Origin: a virus
IMG/VR virus record: IMGVR_UViG_3300015202_000003
Coordinates: 134,096-198,095 of that record
Length of the DNA: 64,000 nt
Reading direction: 5' to 3' (one strand)
The notes beneath the pieces were generated by a model that worked only from the letters and a program-made list of their open reading frames with translations, did no database searches and was not told the origin of the DNA. Made by a program: the position numbers and the translations under genes. Of this stretch, positions 8,601 through 56,632 are shown piece after piece; position 1 is the first letter of the stretch; each line of letters opens with the position of its first letter.

Positions 8601-9695
8601 TTTTCTCCAATTTTATATAAGCATTTGAAAGCTTTAAGTCCAACAGATTTATTGGATTTTCTAAGTTCTGTTGACCAAACAGATCAAGGGCAAAAATATG
8701 CTGAATCGACGGCGTTACCTTCTTCAAGAAGTTTTGAAACACTAAGTCAGTTTTTAAGTTCTGATTCCTACTCTTATTTACGAGGCTCTTTGGTTTGGGC
8801 TGATTTAGAAGTAGATAGCAGATTTAATAGTATTGAAACTTCTAATTTAGCTTTAGATACTTCAAAAGACAAATTAAGGGATTTGTGTGATTTAGTTTCC
8901 TCTCGTTTATCAAATTGGACTTGTTTACGTTCTGACCCCAACGGCTATTATGCAACCACTTTAGTAGGAACATTAAATGCCAGCGGCCCTAAAATAAAAG
9001 AGTTATTTGAATACAATTATAATTTGGCATTTAAAGACGCTTCTGTTTCAGACGATAAAAAATTAAAATCCTGTAATTCTTTAATGGTTTTAATTAAGGC
9101 TATGCGAGATATGGAAAAGAGGGTAGAAGATAAAAGAAGAGAAACAACAAATAATATCATTGGCCCAGAAGCAGGTTCAAAATTTTTAAATTTTTATAAT
9201 CCTTTAAGTGGCATGGATGGGGATATGTATGAGATTCCGGATTTGGGAGACTTAAAATTAATACCTGTTTATTGGAAACAACAATATGCTTTAGCGGATT
9301 CTTCTGTTAATGAAGGCGGAAGAATCAATCTAATTAATTCTTTGTCTTTGGAATTTACGAAGTTTTGGAGTTCTAAACCAGAATTTAAAGAAGATCAATG
9401 TTTGGCATGGTTAAATTCTTTGTTAAGTCCAATTCCTCAAGTGGATGTTCAAAAAGATGCAGTGATTTCTTTAACAACAAATCCAGACACGGATATAATT
9501 TTTTATAAATTGTCTGAAGACAGTCAGAAAATTATTTTAACACAGGTTTACGGCGCTAAAGAAGTAGATTCTAAATGGAATGATTTAATTGCTTCTCGAA
9601 ACCCTGAAGCGCAAAAAACAATTTCTACTGGAAATCTTTTCCCAATGGATGAATCTTTTGCGGCCAAGTTAAGAAAGTTTGGTTTTGCGGTTTAG
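5634..9695 (+). CDS. Tandem two-module MoxR-type AAA+ ATPase
   Basis: Module 1: SNSGMGKSS, LLFLDEY, AATN, ALNRF, PNFRTWE. Module 2: GSSSLGKSA, IYFDEVN, CACN, GARF, PSSRSFE. Confidence 0.9.
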   Translation: MIYSSVLPFIEQSKLCGSGFIENFDLTQVYFPLTLTPDLQKVLDSVSYSSSSHNPLVIHVQPLDIYIIDAVDPLFALWQLSKKTSDVTLRRVDYSNVAEQLVYFRDTVENKEKVYIPSHGNTGDVLDIQNCSLILKAKLGQVAEEKDLVSFSLSSEFEVYENLNLEDNQVQIEEHLEELDALAFNLNKEKRKLFKKLNEELSDDEKSLDLSYTGQVNDSSVIMAFLTSYLLEPKNPPKVPMIQSNSGMGKSSIIKSLANKLGFRMVDIRAAFMLPLDFKGLAEVVAEDNQTTTTYAPSAKLLECSDAGIYFARSTVEKIKVLIQDIVETLPKEFSSQNLEQVLKLDVSKEDKTIQDIVSRLKNLAYFQAKYEEKSKRPLLFLDEYTRAIPMIQGAFFEIFTDRKFADQEMTLAKVLAATNFPVGIDPELASNMFPGVGLVENPAALNRFLILNVTENDVIPDWLVWAGQTNKETGKQNIHPSVYKFLQDKKYQIYDFKVVENAFNASIADQDPRPQTKVATTPFPNFRTWEMVSNYLYSEESKMGATAFSSTENVGNELDITSTEDAQVDKDSSTFSPSSPLTYIAKYTAKDRYESGPRTGVIRANSKAREQEEAKKSGLTFEDRGSEVEINSSGEKGVVKSYDVSSEIFDITTSTGDQKVYKKDVTLIHSKDYLLSSSSGLVSYSDSVKDKTSQKLNSKLPVILPTALEKLVGIGASNDFLKSGFYKCNKKLTKPETSMTDVTDAALSSNTPLLLAGSSSLGKSARVYQWAEKNNAEVITILLSQTDPALVMGRPDTVKAIDYMAGSVISSDSKIRNPQTGLYDDKVSVQGMDGKPVEINQTRYAQSNLEKSEPELYHDLAVDFPPALAKSFTTRVPDRKLKSQMEDIIFNKKKTCIIYFDEVNICSTPAVMSAIFECYSDSRVFGIDFSSFKDRVRIVCACNLKGSGVLDLDTAFGARFMTFAKEKYDISDAKAYLNYAETKLEKGEFSPILYKHLKALSPTDLLDFLSSVDQTDQGQKYAESTALPSSRSFETLSQFLSSDSYSYLRGSLVWADLEVDSRFNSIETSNLALDTSKDKLRDLCDLVSSRLSNWTCLRSDPNGYYATTLVGTLNASGPKIKELFEYNYNLAFKDASVSDDKKLKSCNSLMVLIKAMRDMEKRVEDKRRETTNNIIGPEAGSKFLNFYNPLSGMDGDMYEIPDLGDLKLIPVYWKQQYALADSSVNEGGRINLINSLSLEFTKFWSSKPEFKEDQCLAWLNSLLSPIPQVDVQKDAVISLTTNPDTDIIFYKLSEDSQKIILTQVYGAKEVDSKWNDLIASRNPEAQKTISTGNLFPMDESFAAKLRKFGFAV

Positions 9696-43877: not shown

Positions 43878-44441
43878 ATGTCTAATAACCTAAAATTTGT
43901 TCATCCCAAAGCACAAAAAGCTTTGAAATTAGCTTTTAAAGAGTCTAATCTTAAATTAGTTGTTGTTCAAACAATGAGTTTAGGCGGCAACGATGCAGTT
44001 AAAGCAAGTGCGGGAACACATAACCAAGCGGGAACTTATAGAAATTTATTTGGAATTAATATTCCTTATTCTTCGTGTATAGATTTATCTGTTAACCAAG
44101 AAGCTACGAGAATTAGTGACGGCAAGGCAATTAAATTGGATGAAACTCATATTAAATGGGTTTTAATGAATTTGGCACAGGAAGGGTTTTGCGGATGGTT
44201 CCGAACATTTCAAGAAGGATTCTCGGCTCAACATATTCATGTTTGCTGTCCTCAAGCTCCTATTTCTGGATTGCCTTTGGAACAAGTTTTAGATTTTCTT
44301 ACGGGAAAAGATGGTTTAAGGTATCATCGGAAAGAAGAGTTTTATTCTCCTTCAGAAGAATATGATAAGATAATTGTTCAAAAAATGTTGGAAGCCAATC
44401 CTCATCTAAAAGATAAAGTTCCACAGAAATTTAGGGTTTAA
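43878..44441 (+). CDS. Putative endolysin, Zn peptidase of M15-like fold
   Basis: SAGTH...CIDL...GWFR...HIH, an H..D..HxH ligand set. Confidence 0.6.
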   Translation: MSNNLKFVHPKAQKALKLAFKESNLKLVVVQTMSLGGNDAVKASAGTHNQAGTYRNLFGINIPYSSCIDLSVNQEATRISDGKAIKLDETHIKWVLMNLAQEGFCGWFRTFQEGFSAQHIHVCCPQAPISGLPLEQVLDFLTGKDGLRYHRKEEFYSPSEEYDKIIVQKMLEANPHLKDKVPQKFRV

Positions 44442-47742: not shown

Positions 47743-48243
47743 ATGTATGAAACTACTTTTCAATTATATGAAGGTTGGGTAGAAGGCGAGTTGGTTTGTG
47801 ACAAAACACAAAAAACAATTTTAAATTTAAGAGAGCATTTCCAATTTAAAAATCATAATATGGTTATGAAATTGGCAGGTGTTGCTTTAGCTGCTTCTTT
47901 AAAAGGAGATTCTTCTGTTTTAAATTTTATGTCTATTGGAACGGGTTCCAGTAACGAGATTAATACTGCTTCGAGTTTAGATGCCGAACTTTCAAGAAAA
48001 TCTGTTTCTGTTAATTACGATACGACAACATCTGGAGTTTTAGTTTCTGGCAGTTTTTCAAATCGTTTAGTTGTAACGGCAGTTTTTGACACTTCCGTTG
48101 TAGGAACAATTTCAGAAATGGCTATTTGGAGTTCGGGAACTTCCGTTTTAAATTCTGGTATTATGCTTTCTCGCAAAAAAGTTACTCCTATTACTAAAAC
48201 GGCAGAGACAAGTTTGCGTTTAACTTGGAACTTAGTTTTTTAA
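47743..48243 (+). CDS. Baseplate/tail-fibre attachment protein
   Basis: NMVM..A, MSIGTG, L.AELSRK, ISEMAIW, ITKT...LTW motifs. Confidence 0.65.
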   Translation: MYETTFQLYEGWVEGELVCDKTQKTILNLREHFQFKNHNMVMKLAGVALAASLKGDSSVLNFMSIGTGSSNEINTASSLDAELSRKSVSVNYDTTTSGVLVSGSFSNRLVVTAVFDTSVVGTISEMAIWSSGTSVLNSGIMLSRKKVTPITKTAETSLRLTWNLVF

Positions 48244-48248
48244 AAAAT

Positions 48249-49646
48249 ATGTCAAATCCTTCAAGAGATACATTTCAATCTACTTTAAATTTTTCAAAGG
48301 TTTTGTGGATTGAAAACAGAGATGTTTTAGATTCAGAGTTAAACGAGTTACAGGATAATATTTCCCGTCAATTTAACAATAGAGATGGTATTAATCTTCC
48401 TAATTGCATGGTTTGTAATCCGAGTTACAGCATTGATTCGGTAAATAAATTATTTACGATAAATCATTTAGAAATTAGATCGCAGGGTTTTAGTTGGGTT
48501 ATCAAAGACCGTGTTTTGAATTTTTTTTCCGTAACGGATTTAGTTCCTTCTATAATTTTGGAGATAGATGTTTTTCGGAGAGATGCTACAACAAACCCTG
48601 ATATTTTAAAACATCCTGAAACTTCTTTACCTGTAGCTGAGAGGTTGGAATGGGTTTTTTATTTTTATGCACTCCCACGCCCCGCCAATCTTTTACAGTC
48701 TGAAAATACCCTTTATATAGATTTGTGTCAAATTTCTTGGGCCACCTCTACTTTAACTTGGGGAGCTAACATAGTAAGGGGTTTCGATGTTAGTGATAAA
48801 AGTAGTTTAGACAGGCATTTACTTCCGGAAATAGAAAAACCGGGTATACCTTCTCACGATTTAGTATCGGCTTTAAATCCCGGTTTTATGAGTGTGCCTC
48901 ATTTTACGAAAGTAGATACTCTGGATTTGAGCGTTTTTAGTTATTTAAAGGCTTTTAAATCTGTTTATACACCTTACAATACATGGTATGTTCGTTCTCG
49001 TCTGACGGGTTATAATTCTATGTTAAAACCTAAATTAGATTTTAACGAGGCATGGCAAAGCGACGTTCACAGTTTTATGGGCACGCGATCTTGTATAAAT
49101 GGCGCCCTTTGTGAAACAGATCGAACTTTGTTCCCTACTTATACAGGTTGGGATGACAACTCTTATTTTTTGTTTTTTCTTGTAAAAGCAGAAGTTATAG
49201 GAAATGAAAGTGTTTTAGACGGTGCCACTGCAAGTTTTCAAATTTCTAAGTTTTTACAAGGTGAGCATGGAGGGGATGTGGCGAGAGTCTATTACCATCA
49301 TAATTTTTATCAGCCTATTATTCCCGGAAATACGCGCCTCAATTTACCTCCTGATATAAACAGTGTTGGTTGGGAAAGGGCAGAAGCAAGTGTTAATAAC
49401 TCTTCTAACGGAACTAATTTTATTACAGAATATGATAGTGTGCCGTCTTCTTTTTTTCTTTTGCCTGTTACTTTAGGTTTTACATATTCTGTTTGTTTTG
49501 TAACGCATCAGAATGGTTTCGATGATAATTTTTATTTAAATTTCAGCAGTTGGTTAAATGTGCCTCCTATTTTAGGAGATACTCGTTTAGTTTTAGTTCC
49601 TGACCCCGATTATTTAACATATATTAAAGATGGGGGAAGATTTTAA
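48249..49646 (+). CDS. Tail fibre/baseplate protein (DUF4815-like N-terminus)
   Basis: FSKVLW...R.VLDSELNELQD; ATG at 48249. Confidence 0.65.
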   Translation: MSNPSRDTFQSTLNFSKVLWIENRDVLDSELNELQDNISRQFNNRDGINLPNCMVCNPSYSIDSVNKLFTINHLEIRSQGFSWVIKDRVLNFFSVTDLVPSIILEIDVFRRDATTNPDILKHPETSLPVAERLEWVFYFYALPRPANLLQSENTLYIDLCQISWATSTLTWGANIVRGFDVSDKSSLDRHLLPEIEKPGIPSHDLVSALNPGFMSVPHFTKVDTLDLSVFSYLKAFKSVYTPYNTWYVRSRLTGYNSMLKPKLDFNEAWQSDVHSFMGTRSCINGALCETDRTLFPTYTGWDDNSYFLFFLVKAEVIGNESVLDGATASFQISKFLQGEHGGDVARVYYHHNFYQPIIPGNTRLNLPPDINSVGWERAEASVNNSSNGTNFITEYDSVPSSFFLLPVTLGFTYSVCFVTHQNGFDDNFYLNFSSWLNVPPILGDTRLVLVPDPDYLTYIKDGGRF

Positions 49647-49675: not shown

Positions 49676-50200
49676 ATGTTTACATCAGAAGATACACAGC
49701 AAAAAGTTTTTGAAAATCCTATAGAAAGAAGACAGAGAAAAAATCATTTGTCTCGTTTTTTGTTTTCTTGGTTTTTTTCGATAGATACAGATACGTTAGA
49801 AAAGCTTAACATTCTGCGGAAGTTGTTTTTTGTTTTTGCAATTAGCTATTACGGCTCCAGTGTGCTTAAATTGCCGCCTCCTTATTATAGTAATCACTTT
49901 ATAGTTTTAAAGGTTTGGATGTGGTCTTTTCTTTTTCTTTTAGCAATCGGGGTTCAGCTTTATGGCAGATATAAAAATTCTCTTTTTATTCGGGCGCGTG
50001 GTGCTTTATTAGGATTAGTTTTTTGCGGCGCTATTTTAGAACCTCTTTATTCTAAAAAATCGTTTCCTGATATTGATTTTTTCGCTTATTTGGTAACTTT
50101 TTTTGAGATTATTTTGTGGTCAAGGTTATCTCAAGAATGTCGTCTATTGCATAAGGTTGTTTCTAATTCATTAGATTTAAATAAAGAAATAAGTGGATAA
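49676..50200 (+). CDS. Multi-pass membrane protein (holin-like position)
   Basis: About four hydrophobic segments; follows the fibre genes; 8-nt overlap with the next gene. Confidence 0.6.
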   Translation: MFTSEDTQQKVFENPIERRQRKNHLSRFLFSWFFSIDTDTLEKLNILRKLFFVFAISYYGSSVLKLPPPYYSNHFIVLKVWMWSFLFLLAIGVQLYGRYKNSLFIRARGALLGLVFCGAILEPLYSKKSFPDIDFFAYLVTFFEIILWSRLSQECRLLHKVVSNSLDLNKEISG

Positions 50201-51497
50201 TAAAATAGAGCAATACATAAATTTTTTCGTTCATTATTTTTTTAGTAGTTTGTCCCCTGTATATAGGGGGATAGGTGGAACAACTTTGTTAGCAGCATTT
50301 TTAAACTGGTGGCTCAAAAAACAAGAGAGTAAACAAGACAAAGGAGACAAGAAAAAAGAAGATTCTCAAACTGCTAATGCGACGGTGGAAGTTGCTCGTA
50401 TTACGGATAGTGCGAGCGCCCTTCAATTTGTTTCTGGTCAATTGGAAAAATCTCAATTTCGCTCTGATTCTCTCCAAACGGACAACAATGAAAAAAACAT
50501 TAAAATAAATTCTCTAACTTATGATTTAGAAAGGGAAAAAAAGGGGGGTCAACAAGTTCAGGAAAGGTTGGAGTTTTTAAAAGAGGAAATGGCGAGAAAG
50601 AGTAAAGATTACGAAGAAATAGGTTTTAGGTCAGCATTATTTTTAGATTCTCTTCCAGATATTGTATGGTCTGCACGACAGGATGGTTTCGTAGATTACT
50701 TAAACAGAAAGTATTTTGATACGGTAGGGCATCAATTGCCAGAGATAGAGGGTTGGGGGTGGGAGAGTTTTGTTCATTCTTCGGATATAAAATTAGTAGA
50801 AGATATGTGGAAGAAATCTTTGGCAACGGGAGCTAATTTTGAAATTATTTATCGTTTATATCGGGCTTACGATAAATCTTATCGTTGGCAATTGACAAGA
50901 GCAACTTTAGTAAAAATAAAAGACAGAGGGGATAAATGGGTAGGGATTTCAGTAGACATAGACAATTTAATTTCTTCTCGAAATTCTTCTTCTTTAGATT
51001 TGACTGTTGTTGGAGGTAGTTCTGAAATTAAAAACAACCCTGTAAAAATCTTAGTGGCGGATGGGGATACTGCGATTTGGGGAGTTTTAAAAACCCTGTT
51101 CAAACTGAATGGTTGGGAAGGTTTCTTTGTGGAGGATGGAGAGCGAGCTTGGGATTCTTACGTTTCTAATTTATCTTCTTCTCCTTTTGACGTTATTATT
51201 TTAGAACTCTCTATTCCTAAAAAAACGGGTGAACAGGTTGTAAGACAAATAAGGGAGAGTGGTGATAAAAAAACCCCTATTTTTATTGTTTCTGCTAACA
51301 TTGAGGTTTTAACATTGGGCGCAAGAGAAAGTCTTTTATTAAAAGGTGTTTTATCTAAACCTTTTAATTTGGAAAATTTAAAAAGGGAAATTTTAAATGT
51401 TTTAAATCTTAAAGTAGAAAGTGAAGCTACAAAAGAAGTGCGCGCCAAAGAAGCATTAAAAAAAGAGTTAGAAGATTTAACAGGTGATATGTTGTAA
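50193..51497 (+). CDS. Membrane-anchored coiled-coil-PAS/PAC-atypical receiver protein
   Basis: N-terminal hydrophobic segment (GIGGTTLLAAFLNWW), coiled coil, PAS (LDSLPDIVW...YLNR...GWGW..FVH..D...YRW...WVG..VDID), receiver (ILVADGD, DVIILELSIPKKTG, VSA, SKPF). Confidence 0.88.
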   Translation: MDNKIEQYINFFVHYFFSSLSPVYRGIGGTTLLAAFLNWWLKKQESKQDKGDKKKEDSQTANATVEVARITDSASALQFVSGQLEKSQFRSDSLQTDNNEKNIKINSLTYDLEREKKGGQQVQERLEFLKEEMARKSKDYEEIGFRSALFLDSLPDIVWSARQDGFVDYLNRKYFDTVGHQLPEIEGWGWESFVHSSDIKLVEDMWKKSLATGANFEIIYRLYRAYDKSYRWQLTRATLVKIKDRGDKWVGISVDIDNLISSRNSSSLDLTVVGGSSEIKNNPVKILVADGDTAIWGVLKTLFKLNGWEGFFVEDGERAWDSYVSNLSSSPFDVIILELSIPKKTGEQVVRQIRESGDKKTPIFIVSANIEVLTLGARESLLLKGVLSKPFNLENLKREILNVLNLKVESEATKEVRAKEALKKELEDLTGDML

Positions 51498-56323: not shown

Positions 56324-56632
56324 ATGCAACCAGCACAAAATTTAAGCGCACAAGAGATTGAAAATTTCAATCTCCAAGTTTGGGAGAATTACGTTTCTCT
56401 TTTAGAAGAGGGGCCGAGTTTGTTGCTGGAGCCTTCAGAGAAATTTAGTGTGGCTTTATCTGAAGTTCTCAGAGAAAATCAATTAGAGTCTTCTTTTGTA
56501 AGTTTTGACCCTTATAATTTTCCTTCTCGTTTTATAAATTCCAAAGGGTTTGAAGTAGGTTGTTGGACAGTTTTCCCTAACAGCGAGTTTACGGACGATG
56601 AATTTGAAGGTGAATGTTTTGAGATAATTTAG
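56324..56632 (+). CDS. Acidic hypothetical protein
   Basis: ATG at 56324, downstream of the second repeat copy. Confidence 0.6.
   Translation: MQPAQNLSAQEIENFNLQVWENYVSLLEEGPSLLLEPSEKFSVALSEVLRENQLESSFVSFDPYNFPSRFINSKGFEVGCWTVFPNSEFTDDEFEGECFEII

Follow-up and report, generated by a model that had tools for sequence, protein, structure and literature searches.

In the mycobacteriophages Girr and NormanBulbieJr, a multi-TM protein (LysF1a) and a single-pass membrane protein (LysF1b) are encoded by overlapping genes, and both are required for normal lysis (PMC13056207). LysF1b has one N-terminal transmembrane domain (TMD) in the N-out/C-in orientation, followed by basic residues; 30-50% of the residues in its helical tail are charged. 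About 30% of M. smegmatis phages have a LysF1b-type gene beside a gene with four TMDs (PMC13056207). In cluster A mycobacteriophages, including D29 with its LysA2a/LysA2b, the pair is found among the tail genes rather than beside the lysin, and in some cluster A subclusters a 4-TMD gene is directly upstream (10.64898/2026.08.27.747656). Lysis inhibition in T4, with the holin T and the antiholins RI and RIII, is a case of a large myophage that tunes its lysis time to a signal (PMC11413866). Receivers depend on five catalytic residues (DD, D, T/S, K), and receiver domains without the phospho-accepting Asp, without one of the others, or without both are classed as pseudo-receivers or aspartate-less receivers (PMC12632262). 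The Asp is missing from about 4% of receivers, most often with Glu in its place (26%), and changing Asp to Glu is by itself often insufficient to activate a receiver (PMC4395418).

The locus described here lies in a window of 64,000 nucleotides, which is the final 64 kb of a 198,095-base IMG/VR virus record with an estimated completeness of 88%. The window encodes a major head protein like that of T4 (phrog_138, E = 3e-51), and it also has genes for a tail sheath (phrog_23, E = 3e-78) and for the baseplate, so the source genome is that of a large uncultured T4-like myophage (198 kb). Its GC content is 33%. A Logan assembly, possibly derived from the same sample, contains the same DNA (0 differences over 15,487 bases), and the same genes are called in it (ORF B lies in contig L001), so we rejected an assembly artefact. 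Using the capsid, the sheath, and the protein encoded at 43878 as queries, we found no close relative of the phage. TnpB and the other horizontally acquired genes of the genome did not identify the host, which is probably not an actinobacterium. The only tRNA gene in the window is a tRNA-Arg(TCT) at window:54677-54748. The sequences before the start codons of late genes (for example, upstream of 13459, 26333, and 43878) are A/T-rich and do not have Shine-Dalgarno motifs, and some imported-looking genes have a GC content of 46-59%. Together, these might point to a host of higher GC content in which translation does not use Shine-Dalgarno motifs.

Judging from gene content, the late operon probably ends with two overlapping genes, ORF A and ORF B. 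The features of the locus are as follows (all positions are in the window).

47743-49646, + strand: last genes of the tail/baseplate module, directly upstream of the ORF A/B pair.
49676-50200, + strand: ORF A, ATG start, 174 aa; predicted four-helix membrane protein and candidate holin-like or lysis-regulator partner.
49811-50128, + strand: region in which hydropathy and charge predict four transmembrane segments of ORF A, at aa ~46-64, 75-93, 103-121, and 133-151.
50193-51497, + strand: ORF B, GTG start, 434 aa; anchor, charged stalk, PAS_3 domain, linker, pseudo-receiver, and short tail.
50256-50315, + strand: weak anchor by which ORF B would cross the membrane once (aa ~22-41), with WW-L-KK at its end; the N-out/C-in prediction is marginal.
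50316-50627, + strand: cytoplasmic stalk of ORF B (aa 42-145), 39% D/E/K/R; probably helical or coiled-coil.
50628-50972, + strand: complete PAS/PAC (PAS_3) domain of ORF B (aa ~146-260), PF08447.
51039-51407, + strand: pseudo-receiver (aspartate-less receiver) of ORF B (aa ~283-405), PF00072.
51060-51068, + strand: acidic pocket D290-G291-D292, in which the second, metal-binding acid is replaced by Gly.
51204-51206, + strand: E338 (codon GAA), at the position of the phospho-acceptor Asp when aligned with canonical receivers.
51408-51494, + strand: C-terminal tail of ORF B, ~29 aa, charged; helical in a low-confidence model and probably helical.

The predicted transmembrane segments of ORF A have Kyte-Doolittle (KD) hydropathies of 1.3, 2.2, 1.9, and 1.4 (from N to C terminus), and its Lys and Arg residues are distributed in a way that is compatible with a predicted N-in/C-in topology. 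The tape measure aside, ORF A encodes the only multi-pass protein among the 50 ORFs of the late cluster. No Pfam or PHROG profile, including those of the holin families, matched ORF A at E values up to 10. Searches of 5.8 billion proteins, of metagenome and viral contigs, and of GenBank phages returned only ORF A itself. The single-sequence AlphaFold model is all-helical and poor (pLDDT 59), and fold searches gave nothing significant. In a language-model comparison, the neighbours of ORF A were unannotated clusters of 160-180 aa proteins (scores of 0.91-0.92), and two of the top three clusters are mostly viral. We consider these neighbours to be a lead only.

ORF B starts 8 nt inside ORF A. 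Its anchor is marginally hydrophobic: the best 19-mer has a KD value of about 1.0 and Arg25 lies inside the segment. The tentative prediction of a single N-terminal TMD with N-out/C-in topology is based on the WW-KK boundary and on the positive-inside pattern (one Lys or Arg before the anchor and seven in aa 42-60). When we compared aa 1-150 of ORF B to 1.84 billion representative proteins, the only match was to itself, and aa 1-145 had only non-significant profile matches (phrog_89, E = 0.13; phrog_20, E = 1.3). The single-sequence AlphaFold model of ORF B is poor (pLDDT 37). A predicted complex of ORF A with aa 1-100 of ORF B scored 0.01, which is uninformative for or against an interaction.

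The PAS domain matches PF08447 (PAS_3) across nearly the entire profile (E = 3.8e-10; aa 169-251; profile positions 3-87 of 89; above the curated cut-off) as well as TIGR00229 (aa 149-259). Its identity to PAS domains from histidine kinases is 29-36%, and by sequence it belongs to a family that is common in those proteins. Of the conserved PAS columns, 25/38 are kept (13/38 differ), as compared to 5/36 of the variable columns. In an unresolved tree, the branch leading to this PAS domain is long (1.74, compared to a median of 0.45). ORF B does not contain any Cys, which rules out a LOV- or PYP-type sensor. Its only His residues are at 14, 180, and 195, and H195 is the His of the H-P-D motif of the PAS family; judged by motif only, the PAS domain does not have the heme-ligating His of FixL.

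The receiver matches PF00072 (Response_reg; E = 7.3e-12; aa 286-399; 45.9 bits versus a cut-off of 30.2) and also matched receivers from the PDB. It keeps the residue at 8 of 11 strongly conserved columns and at 13 of 66 variable columns, in a comparison that involved only nine sequences. The three changes at conserved columns affect both catalytic acids (D>G291 and D>E338, each of which is a single-base step) and a Leu (L>F303, which is conservative). S367 and K389 are retained, and the switch aromatic position at K-3 is V386. The fold is maintained and the phosphochemistry has apparently been lost, and by its residues the domain fits the definition of a pseudo-receiver or aspartate-less receiver. 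E338 could be a phosphomimic, but this is not implied by the substitution. ORF B has no kinase or output domain. Beyond the receiver there is just the ~29-aa tail, which would be the sole candidate for an output or dimerisation element. Across the 88%-complete genome, we found no match to HisKA or HATPase_c, and just one receiver and one PAS_3 domain. We therefore rejected a complete two-component system, given also the Glu at the acceptor position. An anti-phage defence system was rejected as well: there was just a weak PADLOC match, in the receiver region.

A sequence-only reading of this DNA had described a ~4-TM protein whose gene overlaps that of an anchored protein with a complete PAS/PAC domain and a receiver, with Glu at the phospho-acceptor position, a DGD pocket, and no kinase or output domain. 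All of these held up, including the coordinates and the 8-nt overlap, and the domains were recovered with PF08447, TIGR00229, and PF00072. Other parts of that reading fared less evenly. Its transmembrane anchor plus coiled coil agrees with the charge pattern and with the charged stalk, though the anchor is only marginally hydrophobic. Its claim that the receiver cannot be phosphorylated agrees with the residues, but mimicry of the active state, which it also raised, is often not conferred by a change from Asp to Glu (PMC4395418). As far as we can tell, the architecture of a membrane anchor, a PAS domain, and a Glu-containing receiver has not been described before.

The position of the pair was also part of the sequence-only reading, which placed it at the end of the late operon. 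The gene content fits, with the major head and sheath genes earlier in the window. The gene at 47743, in the module just upstream, matches phrog_5417 (E = 3e-14) and has a weak match to the tail-fibre family phrog_4176. We found no terminator, and shuffled sequences gave more promoter matches than the locus did, so that the scan was at chance level. In T4, gene t also follows the tail-fibre genes. As a separate observation, a lone minus-strand gene (window:40757-41275) separates the gene for the baseplate spike from the PAAR gene, and it has an NPPY motif and is DNA methyltransferase-like by motif.

No lysin adjoins ORF A and ORF B. The protein encoded at 43878 (window:43878-44441; 187 aa; in the baseplate region), which had been put forward as an endolysin, gave no meaningful match in searches for families, structures, or homologs, and that proposal is unsupported. 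It does have a SAGTH...D...HIH motif, which we take to be reminiscent of M15-type zinc peptidases. Better candidates for lysins and holins lie far away in the genome. These include a candidate SLT transglycosylase at genome position 2215 (E = 2e-7), an RlpA-like protein at 109160, a weak Rz-like match at 107293 (E = 0.03), and two proteins with the shape of a holin, encoded at 56492 and 71129. The protein at 56492 (L010:16492-16905; 137 aa) has two TM segments, a holin-like shape, and no family match, and is an alternative candidate for the holin. There are also two tandem genes from the GH46 chitosanase family (88752 and 89508, spanning genome positions 88752-90215 or L012:8752-10215; E = 5e-25 and 2e-26). 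Tandem GH46 genes are unusual in a phage, and these could possibly be lysins or polysaccharide-degrading enzymes. Since the genome has other candidates for both holin and lysin, ORF A is not required as the holin by elimination.

Our best reading, which is tentative, is that ORF A and ORF B are a pair of lysis regulators with a captured tail of PAS and pseudo-receiver domains. The cytoplasmic stalk, at 39% charged residues, is within the range of 30-50% for LysF1b-type proteins, and ORF B lies directly downstream of a 4-TMD gene, after the tail genes, where LysF1b-type genes follow a 2- or 4-TMD gene. Two overlapping genes that are placed after the tail genes and that encode a multi-TM protein and an N-out/C-in single-pass protein, as for LysF1a/LysF1b, would be co-translated. 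The single-pass partner would have gained its cytoplasmic PAS_3 and receiver domains, with a hybrid kinase of the host that shed its kinase core as the probable source. Both proteins would accumulate in the inner membrane late in infection, and the charged stalk of ORF B would promote oligomerisation with the four-helix ORF A and would trigger disruption of the membrane. Together, the PAS domain and the receiver, which could not be phosphorylated, would form a conformational or dimerisation module that does not depend on phosphorylation and that shifts the trigger time. This last part is more doubtful: we infer only that ORF B might gate the timing of lysis in response to a signal, and we consider it rather improbable that a host metabolite, or a host signalling protein bound to ORF B, shifts the moment when the four-helix partner opens the membrane. 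(Our literature searches, whose coverage was incomplete, turned up no publication that describes PAS domains in the control of phage lysis.)

Some of the evidence counts against a lysis pair. The sequence-only reading spoke of a pair in a holin/antiholin position. The position and the predicted topology do match those of published pairs of lysis regulators, but neither protein has any link to a holin family by sequence or by structure, and there is no adjacent endolysin. No homolog was detected for either membrane part. In a search with full-length ORF B, the matches were to kinase-type PAS segments or to receiver segments only, with no shorter PAS-receiver form.

To look beyond direct homologs, we scanned viral contigs with the PAS profile, and an unrelated phage (L031/L032, and also L043 and L044) proved to have a similar layout.

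L031:4289-5787: analogous cluster of three tightly packed genes, encoding a 4-TM protein of 130 aa, an anchor-stalk-PAS_3 protein of 237 aa, and a 4-TM protein of 136-144 aa.

The two 4-TM proteins of this cluster are paralogs of each other (z = 8.7), and neither has detectable homology to ORF A (z = -0.2 to -1.0; hhalign probability 0.3%). The PAS protein is 28% identical to ORF B over the end of the stalk and the PAS domain, and it does not contain a PF00072 receiver. A common origin of the two PAS domains had a p-AU of 0.38 in an unresolved tree. In these sequences, the layout of a 4-TM protein with an anchor-stalk-PAS protein recurs both with and without a receiver. The sequence-only reading had looked to homologs with and without the PAS-receiver extension, and to their neighbours. 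ORF A and ORF B themselves are singletons, and the receiver-less layout that did turn up lies among accessory genes (NUDIX, HNH, macro, phosphatase, and cREC). No lysin is annotated within ~10 kb of it, on a contig that is 27% complete. This single independent case gives no support to a lysis position. PAS_3 is absent from the five distant myophages that we examined.

Other viral contigs have different combinations of these domains. Two contigs (44 kb and 182 kb) each encode a PAS_3-HisKA-HATPase-REC hybrid kinase and a separate receiver (L040:5848-7608 and 8663-9010; L041:5866-7617 and 8712-9074), which apparently form a complete phage-borne two-component system. These loci are near ribonucleotide reductase genes, and L041 also has a PAAR-like gene. 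A third contig (L034:3547-6498) encodes a GAF protein, a five-PAS protein, and a coiled-coil protein, upstream of a terminase-like ORF. The five-PAS protein has no kinase or output domain, and its last PAS carries a LOV-type motif (NCRFLQ); the coiled-coil protein has a C-terminal TM segment and a weak match to a holin (E = 0.036).

The analogous cluster bears on the idea that ORF A and ORF B form a non-lytic membrane sensor complex, which would monitor or alter the envelope of the infected cell and would have nothing to do with lysis timing. Examples would be superinfection exclusion, control of membrane stress, or counter-defence. We consider this to be unlikely. The only analogous cluster that we found lies among accessory genes, and no lysin is annotated in its surroundings; the pair has no homology to holins, and the genome has other holin-shaped genes, all of which speaks for such a complex. 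But the pair continues the late structural cluster, which is the usual slot for lysis genes, and the contig with the analogue is only 27% complete.

Another idea, which was also raised by the sequence-only reading, is that ORF B is a membrane-tethered decoy that jams the host's two-component signalling: either the pseudo-receiver would dock on a kinase or a receiver of the host, or the PAS domain would heterodimerise with the PAS domain of a host kinase, and no phosphate would be accepted. It is consistent with a receiver that retains its fold, S367, and K389 despite the loss of phosphochemistry, and with a PAS domain from a family that is common in histidine kinases. Also, no kinase was found in the phage, so a partner would have to come from the host. 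We judge it to be quite unlikely, as E338 and G291 preclude action as a phosphate sink, the presumed late expression and the translational coupling to the four-helix gene would be left unexplained, and the analogue does not have a receiver at all; our analysis identified no partner in the host. We treat both signal-gated lysis and the jamming of kinases as proposals.

The sequence-only reading also mentioned a recent bacterial fragment. The codon usage of ORF B is typical of the genome: its GC3 is 0.26 and its codon index ranks at the 41st percentile among 158 genes. Neither the PAS part nor the receiver part is an outlier in codon use, while apparently imported genes reach a GC3 of 0.5-0.6. 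A recent insertion from a high-GC bacterium is therefore unlikely. A low-GC donor for the PAS and receiver domains is possible. In a passenger fusion, an ordinary 1-TM membrane or lysis protein would carry a PAS-receiver fragment that has no function and is slowly decaying. This reading is in line with a fusion for which we found no second example, with catalytic changes that each take a single base, and with the long branch and the altered conserved columns of the PAS domain. We think it improbable given that each of the two domains is complete, reads in frame, and scores above its curated cut-off, that in both of them conserved columns are retained far more often than variable ones, that the codon usage is phage-like, and that an anchor-stalk-PAS protein recurs in another phage.

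If ORF A and ORF B are lysis regulators, then the captured domains would be of interest because lysis timing sets the burst size. The classic case of signal-adjusted timing is lysis inhibition in the T-even phages, where the signal is superinfection, from outside the cytoplasm. If ORF B does gate lysis, then phages would read the internal state of the host directly at the holin step. If the role is non-lytic, then ORF B would be an unusual natural example, in a virus, of a pseudo-receiver that is tethered to the membrane and has no output. Either way, this is a singleton locus, and a role in lysis is what we infer from its layout.

The PAS family of ORF B, and the order of its PAS and receiver from N to C terminus, are as in PAS_3-HisKA-HATPase-REC hybrid kinases. 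In contrast to those kinases, ORF B has a 22-aa Ser/Gly-rich linker in place of HisKA and HATPase, and its receiver is apparently non-phosphorylatable. Hybrid kinases of this kind are carried by large phages (L040 and L041), and it is plausible that the PAS and receiver domains derive from a hybrid kinase minus its kinase core.

With the aspartate-less receivers, ORF B shares the change from Asp to Glu, the loss of the second triad acid, and the retained Ser and Lys (PMC4395418; PMC12632262). The second residue of the acidic triad is acidic in only 29% of aspartate-less receivers, and in ORF B it is Gly (PMC4395418; PMC12632262). ORF B differs from the known examples in that it is encoded by a phage, has a holin-like membrane tether, has its receiver C-terminal to a PAS domain, and does not have a DNA-binding or enzymatic output.

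The T protein of T4 is N-in/C-out, with a globular domain in the periplasm, and it responds to superinfection, whereas the putative sensor of ORF B would be cytoplasmic and of two-component origin, and the two have no sequence similarity.

The closest resemblance in layout is to LysF1a/LysF1b and LysA2a/LysA2b, which share with ORF A and ORF B the gene order, the overlap, the location after tail genes, and the charge pattern. LysF1b homologs are 92-150 aa and do not have sensor domains, while ORF B has 434 aa, with PAS and pseudo-receiver domains, and a weaker anchor. There was no match in the genome to DUF2746 (PF10874), the family of LysF1b. Also, LysF1b-type proteins were described in phages of actinobacteria, while ORF A and ORF B are from a large myophage whose host is probably something else. 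Overall, ORF A and ORF B may function like LysF1a and LysF1b, by an analogy that does not imply membership in that family.
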